A DNA stretch of 64,000 nt from positions 1 through 64,000 of the forward strand of contig JBLNDL010000042.1 in assembly GCA_050261575.1 (NCBI GenBank), read 5' to 3'. Within the stretch, counting starts at the first letter, position 1. Each line of letters opens with the position of its first letter. Shown here piece after piece: positions 1 to 33,000 of the stretch. Position numbers: made by a program. This DNA is from Sphingomonadaceae bacterium (GTDB taxonomy: Bacteria > Chloroflexota > UBA6077).

Positions 1-3000
1 CCTGCCCCTTCGCCGTTGCTTTCCGCCTGCTCTCCCCCTCACACACCGCGACTCAGTCTTCAGACCCCTCATTTCACCATCCCCACGCCCTGCCCCTATC
101 CGAATCCACGGATTAGGGTCGGTCCACAGTTATTGACCTCCCTGCGGAGATCGGTTAGAATAATCGTGTCCTGAGCGTAGCGTAAGGCGCATTCGTCTAG
201 CGGCCTAGGACACCTCCCTCTCAAGGAGGAGATCACCGGTTCGAATCCGGTATGCGCTACCAGACCTTACAACATTCGAACAGATCGCGTTTCCCGGTAG
301 GGAGGCGCTGATCCGCTCGGGACTGATGGACCGGCTCAGTTGAGCCGGTTTTGTCGTTCAGCGTCGCGCCCTGTCGCGAGGCAGGGTGAGGATCGAAACC
401 CATGCAACAATCCCCCTATAATGTTGCAAAGACCAGCTTCGAAAGGGATGTCTCATGGCCGAAAATGGCGCGCCCGGGCTGCCCGTCCCGGCATCGCATG
501 CAACAGTAGTCGCGAAACGTGCTGGGCTGCCCGCCCGGCGGGGGCTGGATCGGCTGCCGGTCTACGTGACGGCCGAGGAGGCCCGGGCCATCATCAACGC
601 CACCCGGGGTTTCCGGGACCGGCTGCTCCTGGAGACCATCTGGCAGACGGGCGGTCGCATCAGCGAAGTTTTGCGGCTACGGCCGGCCGACGTGGACCCG
701 GCCGACGGCACGATCCGGCTGGCGAACCTGAAGCAGCGCCGGGGCGCGGAGAAGGTCGTCTACGTCTCCCTGGACCTGGCGGCGCAGCTGCGGGCGCTGG
801 CCCGGGATCTCCGGGTGCCCCTGAACGGCTACCTCTTCCAGGGCCGGAACCCCGGGCGGCCCATGACGCGGTTCCAGGCCTACCGGATCATCTCGGCGGC
901 CGCGCGGGCCGCGGGCGTCCTCAAGGTCCACCCCGAGAGCGGGCGGGTGATGCCGGCGTGGCCCCATACCTTTCGGCACGGCGCGGCGAAGCACCAGCTA
1001 GAGCAGACGCTGAGGCTCGATTTCGTGCAGGATCAGCTTGGCCACGCCAGCCTGGAGACGACGAAGGTCTATCTACGGTTGGCAGACGCGGACCGGCGAA
1101 GGCTCAGGGACCAGATCAGCTACTAGCGGGCTCAGGCCTGTGTCGCACCGCCTCTAGGTAGGCTGAGGCGTCGCGCTGGACGTTGATCTTCTGGGCCGTC
1201 AGCGGTCGAGCCCTCTCCACGCAGCGCGCCGGCACCGTGGCCATGTCATTGTTCCTTCGCCGGGGTCTTGGTGAGCGCCGGCGGTACCGGCAGTCCGAGC
1301 TGCTGGAGGTTCGCCGTCAGGTCGCCCACCAGGGCCGCCACGACCACCAGCCAGACGGCCGTGGAGTAGGGCTGCCATTCGGGCATCACCTCGGCCACCA
1401 GCCGCACGGCTCCATAGCCGAGGATGTATGGCACCACCTTGCTCCCCAGGAAGGCGGCCAGCCGGGAGAGCTGGAATTGGCCGGCTCGGATCGATGCCGC
1501 GATGCCGAGCAGAACGTCGGCCCCGATCAGGGCCAGGATCAGCCGCACCTGGTCGTTGGCCAGGGTGGCTGCCAGCAGGTCACGCAGTGCTAGATCAGTC
1601 ATCGTATTGCCTCCAGATCATTAGGTCCCCGAGGGGCATGGGGCCGGCTGTCGATGCCTCGGTCTCCCGGGCGGCGAGCTCGGCCTCGCCGCCGGCGATC
1701 ATCGCGGCGGCGATGACGGCCGGCACCTCCACCAGCTCACCCCTCTTGCCCCTCCAGTGGTTCACGAGGAGCCGCACCGTCAGCCACTCCATGGCTCCCT
1801 TCCTAAATCAGGGTCTTCAGCCCCAAATCGGCGGCGAGGGCCGCCTGGTTCACCAGTTCGCGAAGTATGGCCTCCATGGCCGGTCCTGTAGCTCCTCCTC
1901 GTCTGGACTACCGGACGCCCAGCTGGGCAAGTTTGGCCATGATCCTGGATCGCAGCTCGTCCGCCCGCTGGTCCCCCTTCGGAAACACGTCGCTCTTGCC
2001 GTCGAACCAGCCGCCGTAGAGGGCGGTGCCGTCCACCTCGGCGTGGGTAGGGAACGCCAGCGGGACGGTCGGGAACACGGCGCGGACCTGCTGGACCACC
2101 CAGCAGAATGCCCTCACCTGGGCGTCGGTGATCGGGTCATCGGCCGTCCCCTGGGCGAACTCGCAGCCCACGTAGTAGCGGCTGCAGCCCCGCGCGTGCC
2201 AGCACCAATGGTCCCAAGGGAGGTGCTGTGCAACCACATCGTCGCCAACAGTGCACACGGCACCCAGCCCGTCGGTCCGGGTCATCTCGTACTGCGCCGC
2301 TCCGGGGAACTCGTCGGCCACCGGCCGCGAGACCCCAGACCTCGTGCCATGCAACAGGAAGCCCCTAGGCACGGTCAGGTAGGGGAATCGGTTGGAGATG
2401 GCGGCCAGCGGCATCTGTAGCACCCGCGGCGCGTATCCCGAGGCTGGGGGCACGTAATCGGCCTCCCAGGACCAGCGCTCGGTGTTCAGCCGCTCGTGCA
2501 CCTGCCCGTCCGGCCCCGTGACCCAAGTACGGTACCCATCGGTGAAGGCGGTCCAGTTGTCGGCCTTCCGCCACACCAGCAGGCCGTTGGTGGTGGCCTG
2601 CAGGCCGTCTCCGTTGGGGCTGTCGTGGTGCTCGTTCTCCAGGGGCGTCCCGACGATATCGGGGCCCAGTAGCCGGGCCAGCTCCGCGAATCCGAGCCGA
2701 AATACGGGTTGTTCCTGATCGCTCATTGGTTCATCTCCACTACAGTCTCGGGTATCTGTCGCTCCTGGGCCTTCAGCGCACCCAGGTCCTCGGCGGATCG
2801 GATGGCCATCCTGAGCGCCTTGCTCTCCGACTGCAGGGCTGCCACCACCACCCGCAGCGATTCCACTCGACCACGCAGCGAGTCCATCTCTGCCTGCAAC
2901 TTCTCCAGGCGGTCCCACATGGCGTCGGCTCGGGCGGCCCAGGCCAGCTCGGTCTGCTGCCGTATCTGCCGCATGCGCCACAGGGCTCCGGCCAGGGCAG

Positions 3001-30000: not shown

Positions 30001-33000
30001 CCGCCATCAATCCTGGCAACTCTGGCGGACCAGTTGCTGACGGAGCGGGGCGCCTGGTGGGAATCGCCGACTTCATAATCACGGAGGCCGAAGGGCTAAA
30101 CTTCGCCGTGGCGGGCACCGCGATCAAAGACTTCCTGTCAGGCCCACAGGGACTGGCCAACTCGTCTGTGCCCTATCAGATGCAGTCCTTCGGTGTTCCG
30201 GCGGACAAATGGGCAGCCTACACGTGGAGGCTGGCAACGACCGGAGCAGCCTTGGAGGGATACTTCACGGTATCCGGTGACAAAGATGTGGGGTTCCGGA
30301 TCACCGGGCCATCTGACAGCATACTGCTCGACCCTGGGCGTGTTGAGGGGCCCTATGCCTTCGGGATCAGATCGACATCGCCTGGTCCCCATACGCTGTA
30401 CTTCGACAACACCTATTCCATCTTTACCACGAAGAACATCACCCTGTTCTACAGGGTTCACTAGCGCGGTTGCCGGTAGCAGGTGGAGCGGATGCCCAAA
30501 CGCCCCAGATGCAAGTGCCAGGATCCCACCGCCGTGGCGATCCTGGCCAGGATCAGCGACAAGGAAAAGCAGGGACAGGCCAGCCTGGAGGAGCAGGTCC
30601 GGCAGACGCGGGAGCTGCTGGTGGAGCCCCAGGGCTGGCATGTGGTGGCCGAGTACCTAGTGCGGCACCGGGGCTCGGACCTCTCGCGGGATCCGACCTA
30701 TATGACCATGGTCCGGGACGCGCGGGCCGGCAAGTTCGCTCGCCTCTGCCTGCATAAGTTCGACCGCTTCGCCCGTCGGGCCTACGACCGGGAGGTGTTC
30801 GAGCATATCCTGACCCGAGAGTGCGGCATTGCCCTGCACGCGGCCCTGGAGCCGTACGATCTCAGCACGCGAGCCGGGAAGCTGACCAAGAAGACCTCCG
30901 CCTTCATCAGCGATATCTTCCTGGACAACCTGGCGGAGGAGACGGTGAAGGGAATGGTGGCCAAGGTCACCCGCGGCGGCTGGGTTGCCCGAGCGCCCTT
31001 TGGGTACGTGAACAAGCGCGAGGAGATCGGCCACAACAAGTTCCGTCGGTGGGTGGAGGTCGATCCGATCCATGGTCCCGTGGCGCGCCTGGTTTTCGAG
31101 ATGTTCGCCAGCGGCCAGTACACCCTGGACGGACTGGCCGATTGGCTGAACCGTCACGGCTACACATGGCACAATGGCCGACAGTGGCGCCGGGATCGCG
31201 TCCACAGGTTGCTCTTGAACCCCTTCTATGCCGGCCTCATCCGCTGGAACGGGATCGAGGCCCAGGGTGCCCATGAGCCGCTGGTGGATCCCCAGACGCG
31301 GCAGGCATGTCTGTCCATACTGCGGGAGCACGATCAGGATCGCGAGAGACGGTCCCGGCACACCTATGTGCTAAATCGACTGCTGTACTGGGCAGAGCTG
31401 GGCTGCCGCTCGCACGCCGAACACCAGGCCCACGCCGGCGCCAGCTATTACCGATCAATCAAGCCGGGTCCGGATGGATCGCGAATATGCATCCGCTGTG
31501 AGGTTGTCGATGACCAGGTGGGTGTGATCCTGGACGAGCTCGAGATACCACCGTCGCTGCACCCGGCCCTGCGACGCGCCTATAGGCGGGAGATATCCGA
31601 GGCAGCGGCCCCCTACCGGTCTCGAGCCGCGGAGCTCCGGCGTCGTCTTGTAGAGCTGGAGGAGGAGAGCCGGGGCTACGTGAGACTGGCGGCTCAGGGG
31701 CGCATCACCGAGGAGGAGTTCGACGCCGAGCGGCGGCGCGTACAGGGGGCGGTTGCGGCTGTGCGGGAAGATCTCGCCGCCATCGAATCGGGCGGACAGA
31801 GCCAGGTATCGGACCTGGACCTGGCGCTGGCATTCTCGGCCAGGCTGGGTTGCCTGTGGGAGCGCGCCGATGCGGCCCACCGGCGGGCGATAGCTCACCT
31901 GGTGTTCAAGCGGGTATCCATCGACAGCAGCGGAACCGTGGTCGACTATCAGTTGGCGCCTCCCTTCGGATACCTCGCTGCGCTGAAAAGGGCCTGCTAC
32001 CCCGCCCAAGGGGGGCCGTCCCGTTCGAAACACGTCGCAGGTGGGCTACCAATCGGGACACCGGTGGGCCGGCTCGCTCGAGCCGGCCCGTTGTTGTCTG
32101 GGGGGCGGCGCGCTAGGGCAGGCTCGACAGCAACTCCTGCAGGGCTTGCGCGGAGGCTGCCAGCACCACGAGGATCAGGATGGCGTAGGCAACGATCAGG
32201 GTAAGCAGGTTGACACCGTGGGTCATGACACGCCTCCCGCACCTCGGATTCGATACCGATCGGCCAGGGACCGTAGCTGTACTGTGCCTTGGGCACGCTC
32301 CATTCCACTTCCGGTGCCCACTCAGGCCTCATTGGGCGGGCTTTCCTGCTCATACGGCGGGGCCGTTCCACGTACCGGTTCGCCCCCGCCGAATTGGCTT
32401 GATGGCCCACACCAGGAAGCCCAAGAGCCCTGCTGCTCCAATCATTGACGCTCTACGAGAGGTCAGCTAGAATCTCTGTGACTCAAGGGGAGTAGCGTCG
32501 GAACGCGTCGCGCCGGCGCGACGCGGCGACGGGATCGACACACCGGCCTCGGCCCGGTCCCGTCGCTTGGCCTCACCGCCAAGTCGCGAGACCTTCGGTC
32601 CTGGGTGACGCCCGACCGGGGTCTCTTTTTTGTTGCCCAGCAATCCCACTGAGGAGTGAGGCGATGGAGTTCTTTCCCCTGCTGGGCATAGCTTTCGGTC
32701 TGGCGATGGATGCCTTCTCCGTCGCGGTGGCCAGCGGCATTATGCTGGGCACGGTGACTCACCGCCAGGCGTTCCGCCTCTCCTTCCACTTCGGCCTGTT
32801 TCAAGCCGGCATGCCTGTCCTCGGCTGGCTGGCCGGATCTCTGGTGGCCCAGCAGATCGGCGCCTTCGACCACTGGGTAGCCTTCGGCCTCCTCGGGTAC
32901 GTGGGCGGGAAGATGCTGTGGGAGGCCTTTCGCTCGGAGGCGGAGTGCGTGCGCGGCGACCCGACCAGGGGCTCCACTCTCATCATGCTCTCCCTCGCCA

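Follow-up and report, generated by a model that had tools for sequence, protein, structure and literature searches.

The inserted element and its genes

The window, a stretch of 64,000 nucleotides from a bacterium assigned to the Chloroflexota, carries inserted DNA from about 263 to about 32045, directly after a tRNA-Glu(CTC) gene. The features of this element and its flanks are as follows; DJR stands for double jelly-roll, and G001 for a second Chloroflexota element.

186-262, plus strand: tRNA-Glu(CTC) (ARAGORN; Rfam 61.7 bits), left boundary of the inserted DNA
455-1126, plus strand: short tyrosine recombinase, 223 aa, catalytic domain only (Pfam Phage_integrase 5.4e-24; phrog_216 integrase 7.8e-32)
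1246-1602, minus strand: holin with two hydrophobic segments (Pfam Phage_holin_4_1 4.3e-6, above cut-off)
1908-3062, minus strand: amidase endolysin (Pfam Amidase_2 2.3e-8)
3046-4020, minus strand: P-loop NTPase, 324 aa, candidate genome-packaging ATPase (Walker A GPRGSGKS, Walker B VVLIDE)
4017-4667, minus strand: 216-aa ORF overlapping the ATPase start; also adjoins the ATPase in G001
6701-7207, minus strand: 168-aa protein, 42% identical (E 3.5e-16) to L001:20526-21014 in the sister element, G001
7822-9416, minus strand: three small proteins with mostly C-terminal hydrophobic segments (Kyte-Doolittle), candidate virion membrane proteins
9419-9886, minus strand: lytic transglycosylase with C-terminal membrane anchor (Pfam SLT 1.1e-8; hydrophobic segment 135-153)
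9905-12331, minus strand: right-handed beta-helix spike, pectate-lyase-like, 808 aa (Pfam Pect-lyase_RHGA_epim 9.8e-15, Beta_helix 8.1e-9)
12342-13229, minus strand: two-domain vertex protein, penton/spike candidate, 293-295 aa (model pLDDT 74.5)
13277-14320, minus strand: DJR major capsid protein, 347 aa (AlphaFold model, Foldseek, structural aligner, family profile)
14335-14808, minus strand: 157-aa Gly/Ala-rich hydrophobic protein, conserved immediately upstream of the capsid gene
18035-20623, minus strand: primase-helicase (DUF3854/Toprim-like, D5_N, P4-type helicase), replication module (Pfam, NCBIfam, PHROGs)
23908-24720, plus strand: HTH (Xre/cI-type) regulator at the switch between gene blocks (Pfam HTH_3 6.4e-9; PHROG repressor families)
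24898-30464, plus strand: lower-GC accessory block with NYN-domain protein, phrog_9592 protein, Dam methyltransferase, M78 (ImmA/IrrE-like) peptidase and trypsin-like protease
30483-32204, plus strand: large serine recombinase, right end (Pfam Resolvase 1.3e-12, Recombinase 1.8e-13; phrog_95 integrase 2.5e-56)
32019-32053, plus strand: candidate right junction, a degenerate copy of the tRNA-Glu T-arm/acceptor end with GTTCGAA and GCTACCA in common
32664-33218, plus strand: mntP, right flank

Pfam matches at E<=0.01 were obtained for 16 of the 46 candidate ORFs within 455-32204, two of the 16 under curated cut-offs. Both recombinases, the holin, amidase, ATPase, transglycosylase, spike, 347-aa ORF and primase-helicase, which the survey's finding had listed, are all present at their positions according to Pfam, PHROGs and NCBIfam. 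Its statement that portal, terminase, HK97 capsid and tail-tube genes are lacking holds as well: head, portal, terminase and tail-tube families were absent from 45 element ORFs searched with PHROGs, and terminase, portal, HK97 capsid and tail-tube families from 50 ORFs scanned with Pfam.

The primase-helicase matches D5_N (1.8e-35) and DUF3854 (1e-18) in Pfam, TIGR01613 (1.6e-97) and phrog_6088 (1.7e-146). The amidase is 48% identical to that of G001, and its residues 114-200 form a domain in common with the protease at 28950-30464 and with a host protein of a relative (G002). In the three small proteins, hydrophobic segments lie at residues 136-154 (7822-8298) and 180-198 (8814-9416), with two to three in the product of 8301-8687, and no Pfam, PHROGs or NCBIfam family was found for any of them. 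An SLT protein occupies the matching relative place in G001.

The major capsid protein

The survey's finding had identified the ORF at 13277-14320 as a DJR major capsid protein, and both structure and sequence bear this out. A new AlphaFold model (pLDDT 85.9, pTM 0.87) scores above the earlier one (pLDDT 78, pTM 0.81), and a search of 5.77 billion proteins again gave 15 homologues at E<=1e-3. The Foldseek result was reproduced as well: the STIV capsid protein 2bbd (E 3.3e-16) and PRD1 P3 (about 1e-13) precede PBCV-1 and PM2, and 168 matches reach E<=1e-3. An independent aligner run against 48,161 chains superposed the model on the STIV capsid protein with Z 26.9 (rmsd 2.6, 295 of 323 residues aligned), on PRD1 P3 with Z 23.7 and on PBCV-1 and PM2 with Z about 18.5; the match of the predicted fold is far beyond chance. 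A 107-sequence family profile searched against PDB sequences recovered two entries at E<=10, both of them the STIV coat protein (E 2.9e-14 and 3.9e-14). Since the profile finds this protein by sequence alone, the element can be regarded as a bacterial member of the STIV group. The capsid family is large (302 clusters), so far unnamed, and was not found in IMG/VR or GenBank phages; other samples contain a close homologue with 92% identity.

It is highly improbable that the locus is instead a tailed prophage, or some other element of a non-DJR kind, whose head genes have diverged beyond detection, with the 347-aa protein being a DUF2961-like enzyme or a carbohydrate-binding cargo. According to a passage of PMC8812541, cellular homologues with the DJR fold are known, and frequent among Chloroflexi, and DUF2961 proteins, which had been named as the identity that could overturn the capsid assignment, have the double jelly-roll topology in common with the ORF. 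However, the cellular DUF2961 structure 4kq7 reaches a Z of just 13.7, far below the values for viral capsid proteins; the ORF has no Pfam DUF2961 match, and its gene context is virus-like. The tailed reading also draws on the tailspike-like beta-helix protein, whose PHROG matches include tailed-phage spike families, and on a weak tape-measure PHROG match (E 1.2e-4) over the SLT domain of the transglycosylase. Against it stand the sequence-level homology to the STIV coat protein and the absence of terminase, portal, HK97 capsid and tail-tube families both here and in related loci (29, 30, 36 and 64 ORFs); in the set of 64, which comes from four long metagenome loci, no tailed-phage head genes were found. 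Moreover, in each of four independent loci a conserved membrane protein and a pentamer-fold protein are encoded on either side of the capsid gene; homologues of the upstream 157-aa protein take the same position in G001 (33% identity), G221 (33%) and metagenome locus L030 (28%).

A candidate vertex protein and the spike

The survey's finding had left the penton and membrane proteins unidentified. A candidate for the penton is now provided by the gene at 12342-13229, and candidates for the membrane proteins by the hydrophobic segments described above. The modelled N-domain of the putative vertex protein (residues 6-113) superposes on the C-domain of XepA (Z 12.4, rmsd 2.5, 99 residues aligned, 21% identity) and on YomS (Z 11.7), whereas its C-domain (181-293) gives generic jelly-roll/TNF-C1q-like matches with Z 7-9, a range that the aligner calls common. 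XepA (PBSX) and YomS (SPbeta) are lysis-cassette proteins of tailed Bacillus prophages, while the protein described here adjoins a DJR capsid gene. Both are pentamers, and XepA likewise has two domains, beta-sandwiches joined by a linker (abstract of PMC6834076); in the part of PMC8812541 that concerns them, Krupovic et al. compare XepA/YomS to fivefold capsomers. The likeness lies in the predicted fold of the N-domain, as a profile search of PDB sequences returned nothing at E<=10.

The N-domain recurs in G001, G221 and L030. In G001 and L030 it occurs as a 133-145-aa protein right after the capsid gene and also as the N-terminus of larger proteins, spikes among them. In PRD1, P31 and P5 have an N-terminal domain in common, and the recurrence observed here, stand-alone and at the head of larger proteins, mirrors that arrangement. 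The 808-aa spike matches 19 PHROG spike/fibre families, and its N-terminus is 33% identical to a spike protein of L030.

The packaging ATPase candidate

The survey's finding had proposed a B204-like packaging ATPase at 3046-4020. What stands is a conserved P-loop protein with Walker A and B motifs, seven homologues at 54% identity or more (a close one in other samples at 86%) and a homologue in G001 (E 2.1e-23). Profile searches of the PDB gave Walker-A matches of the generic P-loop kind, A32, FtsK and HerA families were found in none of eight members by Pfam, and hhalign gave probabilities of 32% for STIV B164, 20% for STIV2 B204 and 49% for PRD1 P9, the last aligning the Walker A motif alone. 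Membership in the B204/P9/A32 packaging family is thus unproven. In four long metagenome loci, moreover, no A3-type ATPase was found in the 10 kb to each side of the capsid gene. The overlapping 216-aa ORF is 32% identical to L006:16193-16429 (tblastn, E 8e-7).

Ends and integrity of the element

No significant att repeat was found within the window, as the survey's finding had stated, yet both ends, which it had left unfixed, can now be placed. On the left, homology to G002 (97.5% over window 186-265) ends 3 nt past tRNA-Glu, and in that relative the tRNA lies 2.9 kb from mntP as against 32.4 kb here. On the right, the candidate junction aligns to tRNA-Glu with a gapped score of 17, not significant window-wide. 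It is supported by its coincidence with a change in the depth of near-identical contigs from metagenome run X1, a weak measure: six contigs inside the element have depths of 3.8-7.2, and two on 32045-34000 have 26.5 and 32. The right end is accordingly a candidate, near 32045. In the soil metagenome the element thus has a lower depth than its flank, which suggests a polymorphic rather than a fixed element.

G001 has clearer ends: two copies of a tRNA-Lys repeat, 35.7 kb from each other and identical over 41 bp (over 51 bp if one mismatch is allowed), bound it, and an integrase gene lies just within. The two elements are syntenic; both encode the capsid protein and the membrane protein upstream of it, the ATPase, the amidase and two other ORFs, and they also have the N-terminal part of the primase in common.

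Two further readings concern how much of the inserted DNA is virus, and whether it still functions. The first, which we consider rather unlikely, is a tandem composite in which a minus-strand DJR provirus with a GC content of 0.65-0.71 occupies about 263-24800 with the tyrosine recombinase, and a separate plus-strand island (GC 0.59-0.62) occupies about 24900-32045 with the serine recombinase. The abrupt switch of GC and strand at about 24 kb, the presence of one recombinase at each end, the defence-like or moron-like genes of the accessory block (NYN, Dam methyltransferase, phrog_9592) and its slightly lower contig depths in X1 (3.8-4.2 against 5.9-7.2 in the virus part) all fit such a composite. 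However, the first element would have to end near 24-25 kb, and no repeat of tRNA-Glu is present there; both blocks are low in depth relative to the flank; and the HTH gene (23908) and the M78 gene (28138) form the usual prophage regulator pair across the two blocks. In L030, furthermore, a large serine recombinase and a LexA-like repressor adjoin the same capsid module, and the sister element G001 is also large.

The second reading, improbable though far from negligible, is a defective or domesticated remnant in which the capsid module is real and excision or particle formation has been lost. The tyrosine recombinase is a truncated form that keeps the catalytic domain alone, spanning positions 3-170 of the 172 in the Phage_integrase profile, matching the XerA model only from position 87 on and having no N-terminal SAM-like domain; the candidate attR is degenerate; and the last 50 or so codons of the serine recombinase read beyond the inferred junction into flanking DNA. 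On the other hand, the large genes are all intact open frames with a strong codon-position GC bias, the capsid match has no internal stops, close homologues of the capsid protein and the ATPase occur in other samples, and the depth difference speaks for a polymorphic element.

Relation to known viruses

PRD1 (Tectiviridae) likewise has a DJR capsid protein, and much of its annotated gene set is paralleled here: penton and spike with a common N-terminal domain, a virion transglycosylase (P7), small membrane/DNA-delivery proteins, holin and lysin, and a packaging ATPase. Unlike PRD1, whose genome is linear, lytic and 14.9 kb, the element is integrated, temperate-looking and twice that size, and has a primase-helicase instead of a protein-primed PolB and terminal protein. 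We take its class to be Tectiliviricetes.

By capsid structure, the closest relatives are those of the STIV group, which comprises the Turriviridae STIV1 and STIV2, the archaeal proviruses TKV4/MVV and bacterial proviruses already described in 2018 (passages of PMC5894146). As described there, such proviruses are integrated and have recombinases and a variable replication module, as does the element here. Differences lie in size (STIV1 and STIV2 have 17.7 and 16.6 kb, the element about 32 kb and G001 35.7 kb), in the vertex protein, which has no detectable similarity to STIV A223, and in the ATPase, whose similarity to that of STIV is marginal, whereas group members are described as encoding a highly similar one (passages of PMC5894146). 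The host, too, is distinct, a high-GC bacterium assigned to the Chloroflexota; neither PMC5894146 nor PMC8328091 contains the word Chloroflex in its main text.

Overall, we put at roughly 85% the probability that the DNA from about 263 to about 32045 is an integrated dsDNA virus with a tailless icosahedral particle, probably temperate, which falls in the double jelly-roll lineage and there in the "STIV group" of Yutin et al. 2018. The evidence supports a bacterial STIV-group provirus, of a kind already described, rather than a tailed phage, and the corresponding claim of the survey's finding is upheld by the structural and sequence match of the capsid protein to the STIV coat protein, the adjacent vertex protein candidate, the sister element and the relative with the short site.

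In the life cycle of such a virus, the serine recombinase, the short tyrosine recombinase at the tRNA, or both would integrate and excise the element, with the HTH and M78 proteins controlling lysogeny and the D5/P4-type primase-helicase replicating the genome. The DJR protein would form trimeric, pseudo-hexameric capsomers and with these the shell, and the two-domain protein would sit at the fivefold vertices via its XepA/YomS-like N-domain. The beta-helix protein would be a host-recognition, polysaccharide-degrading spike. Judging from hydrophobic segments, gene order and the annotation of PRD1, the small hydrophobic proteins and the anchored transglycosylase would be components of an internal lipid membrane, with roles in penetrating the wall and delivering the DNA. 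The P-loop NTPase, to go by its linkage, might pump the genome into preformed procapsids, and holin and amidase would release the progeny. On this reading, a known PRD1/STIV-like type of virus is extended to a new kind of bacterial host.

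Gene content of the element

The element, from ~263 to ~32045, is read here as an integrated tailless provirus with a double jelly-roll (DJR) capsid protein, with a probability of about 85%. The survey's finding of a provirus of the PRD1/STIV kind is well supported by the structure of the capsid protein, its sequence match to STIV and the absence of tailed-phage families. With a GC content of 0.62-0.71, the window yielded a clean gene map from codon-position GC bias, and Pfam, PHROGs and NCBIfam scans of the window ORFs showed the gene inventory and positions of the survey to be accurate. 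From left to right, the features are as follows.

186-262: tRNA-Glu(ctc)
455-1126, plus strand: short tyrosine recombinase, after tRNA-Glu
long block up to ~24.1 kb, minus strand, first part: holin, amidase, P-loop ATPase (3046-4020), many ORFs without a family and an SLT transglycosylase
same block, minus strand, then: 808-aa beta-helix spike, 295-aa ORF (12342-13229) and 347-aa ORF (13277-14320)
same block, minus strand, last part: more ORFs without a family and a D5/P4-type primase-helicase
block of lower GC (0.59-0.62), plus strand: HTH regulator, NYN protein, phrog_9592 protein, Dam methyltransferase, M78 peptidase and trypsin-like protease
end at 32204, plus strand: large serine recombinase, last gene of the plus-strand block
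start at 32664: mntP

Portal, terminase, HK97 capsid and tail-tube families were matched by none of 45 ORFs in PHROGs, none of 50 in Pfam and none in NCBIfam (E<=1e-3), in line with the earlier statement that these genes are missing, although very divergent versions may be hidden among the about 30 ORFs without any family. 'Tail' matches in the element, all from PHROGs, are confined to two proteins: the beta-helix protein matches spike or fibre families, and the SLT domain matches one tape-measure family weakly. Tailed-phage head genes were also not found in four long metagenome loci that carry relatives of the element, all of which are phage-like.

A crude hydropathy scan places hydrophobic segments, mostly C-terminal, in the products of 7822-8298, 8301-8687 and 8814-9416 and in the SLT protein, while a 157-aa Gly/Ala-rich protein is encoded upstream of the capsid gene in a position that is conserved in three related loci (those of genomes G001 and G221 and metagenome locus L030). 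Judged from their sequences, the small hydrophobic proteins, the SLT protein and the Gly/Ala-rich protein would be consistent with a virion that has an internal membrane.

Two further features of the gene map deserve mention. A domain of ~80-105 aa is common to the endolysin (residues 114-200; window 2506-2664) and the trypsin-like protease (residues 8-113; window 29040-29278). It occurs also, at 57-62% identity, in a chromosomal protein of G002, a relative in the same family (L018:11044-11292), and is highly abundant in the soil metagenome run X2 (depth 512 in that bin). We take it to be a probable cell-envelope anchoring or binding domain of host origin. Between the serine recombinase and mntP lies an ORF of 37 codons (32114-32227, minus strand) without family annotation that encodes a hydrophobic peptide, with a GC-rich hairpin at ~32067-32090 on the plus strand just upstream of it; its product could be a small membrane protein, or the gene could be type I toxin-like.

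A capsid protein related to that of STIV

The 347-aa product of 13277-14320 (g01447) has 15 homologues at E<=1e-3, the same count as in the survey, and a model built on their alignment reaches pLDDT 85.9 and pTM 0.87. It consists of two consecutive eight-stranded jelly-roll barrels in one chain and superposes almost end to end on solved viral DJR capsid proteins. Foldseek places the STIV capsid protein 2bbd first (E 3.3e-16), followed by PRD1 P3 (E about 1e-13) and then PBCV-1 and PM2, among 168 matches at E<=1e-3. An independent search with VIA-align against 48,161 chains gives 2bbd a Z of 26.9 (rmsd 2.6, 295/323 residues), PRD1 P3 23.7, and PBCV-1, PM2 and Faustovirus 18-19. The DJR major capsid fold assigned by the survey is thereby confirmed.

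DJR folds also occur in cellular enzymes, and the survey had itself raised such proteins as an objection to a viral reading. In VIA-align, they resemble the model to a lesser degree: the DUF2961 protein 4kq7 reaches Z 13.7, others 13.4 and 13.1, and PNGase F 7.4, against 26.9 and 23.7 for the viral proteins, and there is no Pfam family match. The modelled capsid protein is thus closer to viral capsid proteins than to the cellular DJR enzymes (DUF2961, PNGase F).

The relationship to STIV can also be detected at the level of sequence. An exhaustive profile search recovered 302 representative clusters of the capsid family at E<=1e-3 (220 at <=1e-10 and 105 at <=1e-30), of which 107 were combined into a family profile. 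Exactly two PDB sequences match this profile at E<=10, both of them STIV coat protein (3j31/2bbd; E 2.9e-14 and 3.9e-14), over profile positions 4-278 or about 270 residues; the profile of only 15 sequences puts the same two on top, at E 0.28 and 0.36. Because the larger profile finds the STIV coat protein, the capsid protein is a sequence-detectable relative of the STIV capsid protein and not a mere look-alike fold.

The family is poorly represented in current resources. It has no Pfam or NCBIfam model, and only 6 of the 107 profile members match a PHROGs 'head protein' family, marginally (best E 2.7e-5). Pattern scans of IMG/VR for capsid relatives gave 76 and 15 candidate stretches, none of which was confirmed, and tblastn with the capsid protein and the ATPase against 50,697 GenBank phage records returned no match at E<=0.1.

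One metagenome contig (SDBU01002093.1; L037:9245-12316) encodes three tandem DJR capsid paralogues of 335, 342 and 360 aa, whose matches to the family profile have E values of 1e-89 to 1e-98. The triplet suggests that the capsomers may be hetero-trimeric or that one copy may be a specialised peripentonal capsid protein, either of which would be unusual for prokaryotic DJR viruses.

Relatives in other genomes

The nearest named carrier of a related capsid protein (29% identity) is G001, a Chloroflexota metagenome-assembled genome (MAG) whose sister element has seven genes in common with that of the window. Its genes run in the order integrase, lysin, regulator, membrane protein, capsid protein, vertex and spike proteins, SLT, small proteins, ATPase and primase. 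At its ends, 35,657 bp apart, the 3' half of tRNA-Lys is directly repeated, exactly over 41 bp and with one mismatch over 51 bp, and the integrase starts 15 bp inside one repeat copy. With boundaries, att repeats and a recombinase, the sister element shows all the marks of an integrated provirus. A third, partial copy of the tRNA-Lys anticodon arm (22 nt; L006:673-694, G001:C193:47672-47693) lies ~165 nt inside this element, and the intact tRNA-Lys stands at the end away from the integrase; these observations suggest either a tRNA-like sequence of the element's own or successive integrations at the site.

Further capsid matches were found in an Armatimonadota MAG, a Geobacteraceae MAG and 16 metagenome loci. 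Within the window's phylum, 3 of 401 sampled genomes encode the capsid protein, the window's own genome counted. A large serine recombinase is present in metagenome locus L030 too, together with a LexA-like repressor. Another genome of the same phylum is G171, whose small size (1.8 Mb) and encoded reductive dehalogenase would fit Chloroflexota. It carries a capsid homologue on its contig C14 (L021/L022), and the surrounding island also encodes a small serine resolvase, an AAA_25 helicase, an Eco57I-type restriction-modification gene, a SNF2/PLD protein and a Dam methyltransferase.

A candidate vertex protein

Directly downstream of the capsid gene, 12342-13229 encodes a protein with 12 homologues at E<=1e-3 (its own sequence included) that are conserved in the C-terminal half and variable in the N-terminal half. 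The model (pLDDT 74.5) shows two beta-sandwich domains, at about 7-114 and 183-292, connected via a disordered linker and a helix. The N-terminal domain (residues about 6-113) aligns with the C-domain of XepA at Z 12.4 (rmsd 2.5, 99 residues, 21% identity) and with YomS at Z 11.7, both clearly above every other row of the fold search. For the C-terminal domain the matches are generic (jelly-roll, TNF/C1q and small capsid proteins) and lie at Z 7-9, a range that the aligner's own warning describes as common. XepA and YomS form pentamers in crystals (PMC6834076), and the XepA pentamers have been likened to fivefold capsomers by Krupovic et al. (PMC8812541).

A profile of the protein finds the N-terminal domain repeatedly in the relatives. 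In G001 and L030 the gene right behind that of the capsid protein encodes it as a free-standing protein of 133-145 aa. Larger proteins begin with it as well: two in G001, of which one has an endosialidase-chaperone domain, and one each in L030 and G221. The window has a single copy. The recurrent arrangement matches the relation of penton P31 and spike P5 in PRD1, which have a common N-terminal domain. A small beta-sandwich domain is thus found beside the capsid gene and reused as N-terminal anchor of spikes, as fits a penton or vertex protein. Further comparisons gave no match: the profile finds nothing in the PDB at E<=10, hhalign against STIV A223 returns a probability of 0.2%, and in the fold searches with this protein neither PRD1 P31 nor PM2 P1 nor STIV A223 was prominent.

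The putative packaging ATPase

The ATPase gene starts at a TTG at position 4020, which gives a protein of 324 aa. Its Walker A (GPRGSGKS) and Walker B (VVLIDE) motifs are invariant or nearly so in all eight aligned homologues, and in having both motifs and a small core of ~200 aa, though not in more specific features, the protein resembles the A32/P9/B204-type (FtsK-HerA) packaging ATPases. Comparison by hhalign gives a probability of 32% (E 5e-4) with STIV1 B164 and 20% with STIV2 B204, in both cases with the Walker B motif and the following R-H...(H/Q) stretch aligned, while the alignment with PRD1 P9 is limited to Walker A. Searches of the PDB (phmmer and profile) and of Pfam (with eight members) return generic P-loop matches only (AAA/STAND/Zot), and the neighbours in the Atlas are mostly viral clusters loosely tagged AAA/Zot. 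The survey had likened the protein to the B204 packaging ATPase by its fold and had seen only Walker A by sequence; the P-loop assignment stands and now includes Walker B, but the match to the B204 family is marginal.

The gene order of the G001 element includes a homologue (E 2.1e-23) at the corresponding place, and the gene is therefore present in both complete elements examined. Proteins 65% identical to the ATPase and 64% identical to the capsid protein come from contigs of which the longest is 32,544 bp. Against such a linkage, within 10 kb on either side of the capsid gene an ATPase gene of this type was not found in any of the four long metagenome loci, nor was one recognised in the 39.5 kb examined of contig C14 of G171. 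Genome packaging would be the likeliest role of the protein, though an unproven one; the best argument for it is the linkage to the capsid module in G001, the similarity to B204 and B164 being thin.

The start of the ATPase gene is duplicated. A 98-nt direct repeat, 85% identical between 3950-4047 and 4803-4900, copies the ribosome-binding site together with codons 1-21, and as a result a 69-aa ORF (4664-4873, minus strand) opens with the ATPase's own start peptide MIGDIPSVLREIQAA, 18 of 21 residues being identical.

The ends of the element

The left end was placed by comparison with G002, whose tRNA-Glu is 97.5% identical and in which homology ends 3 nt past the tRNA. The distance from tRNA-Glu to mntP is 2.9 kb in G002 versus 32.4 kb in the window, and since the G002 interval is itself unrelated DNA, the tRNA-Glu site is a variable hotspot. 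Assembly breaks just upstream of this tRNA: the first 118-121 nt of the window are a dispersed repeat with 99-100% identical copies at the ends of five other contigs of the genome (C60, C6, C48, C41, C17), and this is probably where an insertion sequence or some other multi-copy element ends.

At the right end, the soil metagenome run X1 contains six near-identical contigs inside the element (15856 to 31721, serine-recombinase block included) at a depth of 3.8-7.2, and contigs on 32045-32513 and 32515-34000 that reach 26.5 and 32. Depth taken from contigs is a weak measure, and the difference is only a hint that the whole stretch 263-32045 is accessory in the X1 population. Contig joints such as 22063->32505, with 23 and 26 foreign letters on their sides, were disregarded because the sides fall below 30. 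An empty-site contig was not found in the window's own genome.

The depth break coincides with 35 nt (32019-32053) that resemble the T-arm and acceptor end of tRNA-Glu and share GTTCGAA and GCTACCA with it. In a gapped scan this resemblance scores 17, under the maxima of 20 shuffles (19-25), and is therefore not significant window-wide. Exact repeats of at least 11 nt of the sequence at 100-470 occur elsewhere in the window at chance level only (the longest, 14 nt, at 41142), and an ungapped att scan of the window found nothing at a score >=13. Apart from the degenerate resemblance at 32019-32053, the survey's statement that there is no att repeat holds for the window. A split integrase of the SSV type was considered and rejected, as neither a repeated core nor an N-terminal integrase fragment was seen at the far end. 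The element encodes two recombinases, one tyrosine and one large serine recombinase. A serine recombinase does not require a long repeat, and the absence of one is expected if this enzyme is the working integrase.

Relation to known viruses and outlook

Tailless DJR viruses in bacteria are thought to be badly under-counted because their capsid proteins evade sequence-based annotation. Chloroflexota is, to our knowledge, a phylum with very few characterised viruses.

Proviruses of bacteria (the PVC group, Nitrospirae and Proteobacteria) are already part of the STIV group as Yutin et al. 2018 defined it, and members of the group have tyrosine integrases and variable replication modules (PMC5894146). 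The placement of the 'bacterial STIV' is uncertain and is discussed by Woo et al. 2021 (PMC8328091). The main texts of these two papers make no mention of Chloroflexi; their supplements list contigs and could include the capsid family. The literature found on Varidnaviria or Tectiliviricetes together with Chloroflexota or Chloroflexi consists of environmental surveys, and the passages on Tectiliviricetes in a fumarole-virus paper link no DJR virus to the phylum. The picture of the virus kingdom is unchanged, bacterial STIV-group proviruses having been in print since 2018. To the known STIV group, the element adds a seemingly new group of hosts, a vertex protein with the fold of XepA and YomS, and about double the genome size: at ~32 kb, it is about twice as large as STIV1 (17.7 kb), STIV2 (16.6 kb) and PRD1 (14.9 kb).

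A broader reading joins the provirus and its vertex protein. The provirus may belong to a large lineage, as yet without a name, of temperate tailless viruses that contain a membrane, with at least 302 capsid clusters at 50% identity, genomes of 32-36 kb and hosts among Chloroflexota, Armatimonadota, Geobacteraceae and other soil and subsurface bacteria, which was not seen in IMG/VR, GenBank phages and PHROGs in the searches made, and whose vertex protein would share true homology with XepA and YomS. Taken as a whole, this combination is tentative, and we lean somewhat against it. If it is true, the unexplained Bacillus prophage proteins XepA and YomS gain an origin as virion vertex (penton) proteins.

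Overall, the locus is a concrete case of under-counting: a family of 302 clusters with no Pfam or NCBIfam model and a marginal PHROG match, yet unmistakably STIV-like. It provides a complete gene map for a host of the Chloroflexota type, and a sister element with exact att sites, and it suggests that DJR vertex proteins may be linked to the pentameric fold of XepA and YomS.
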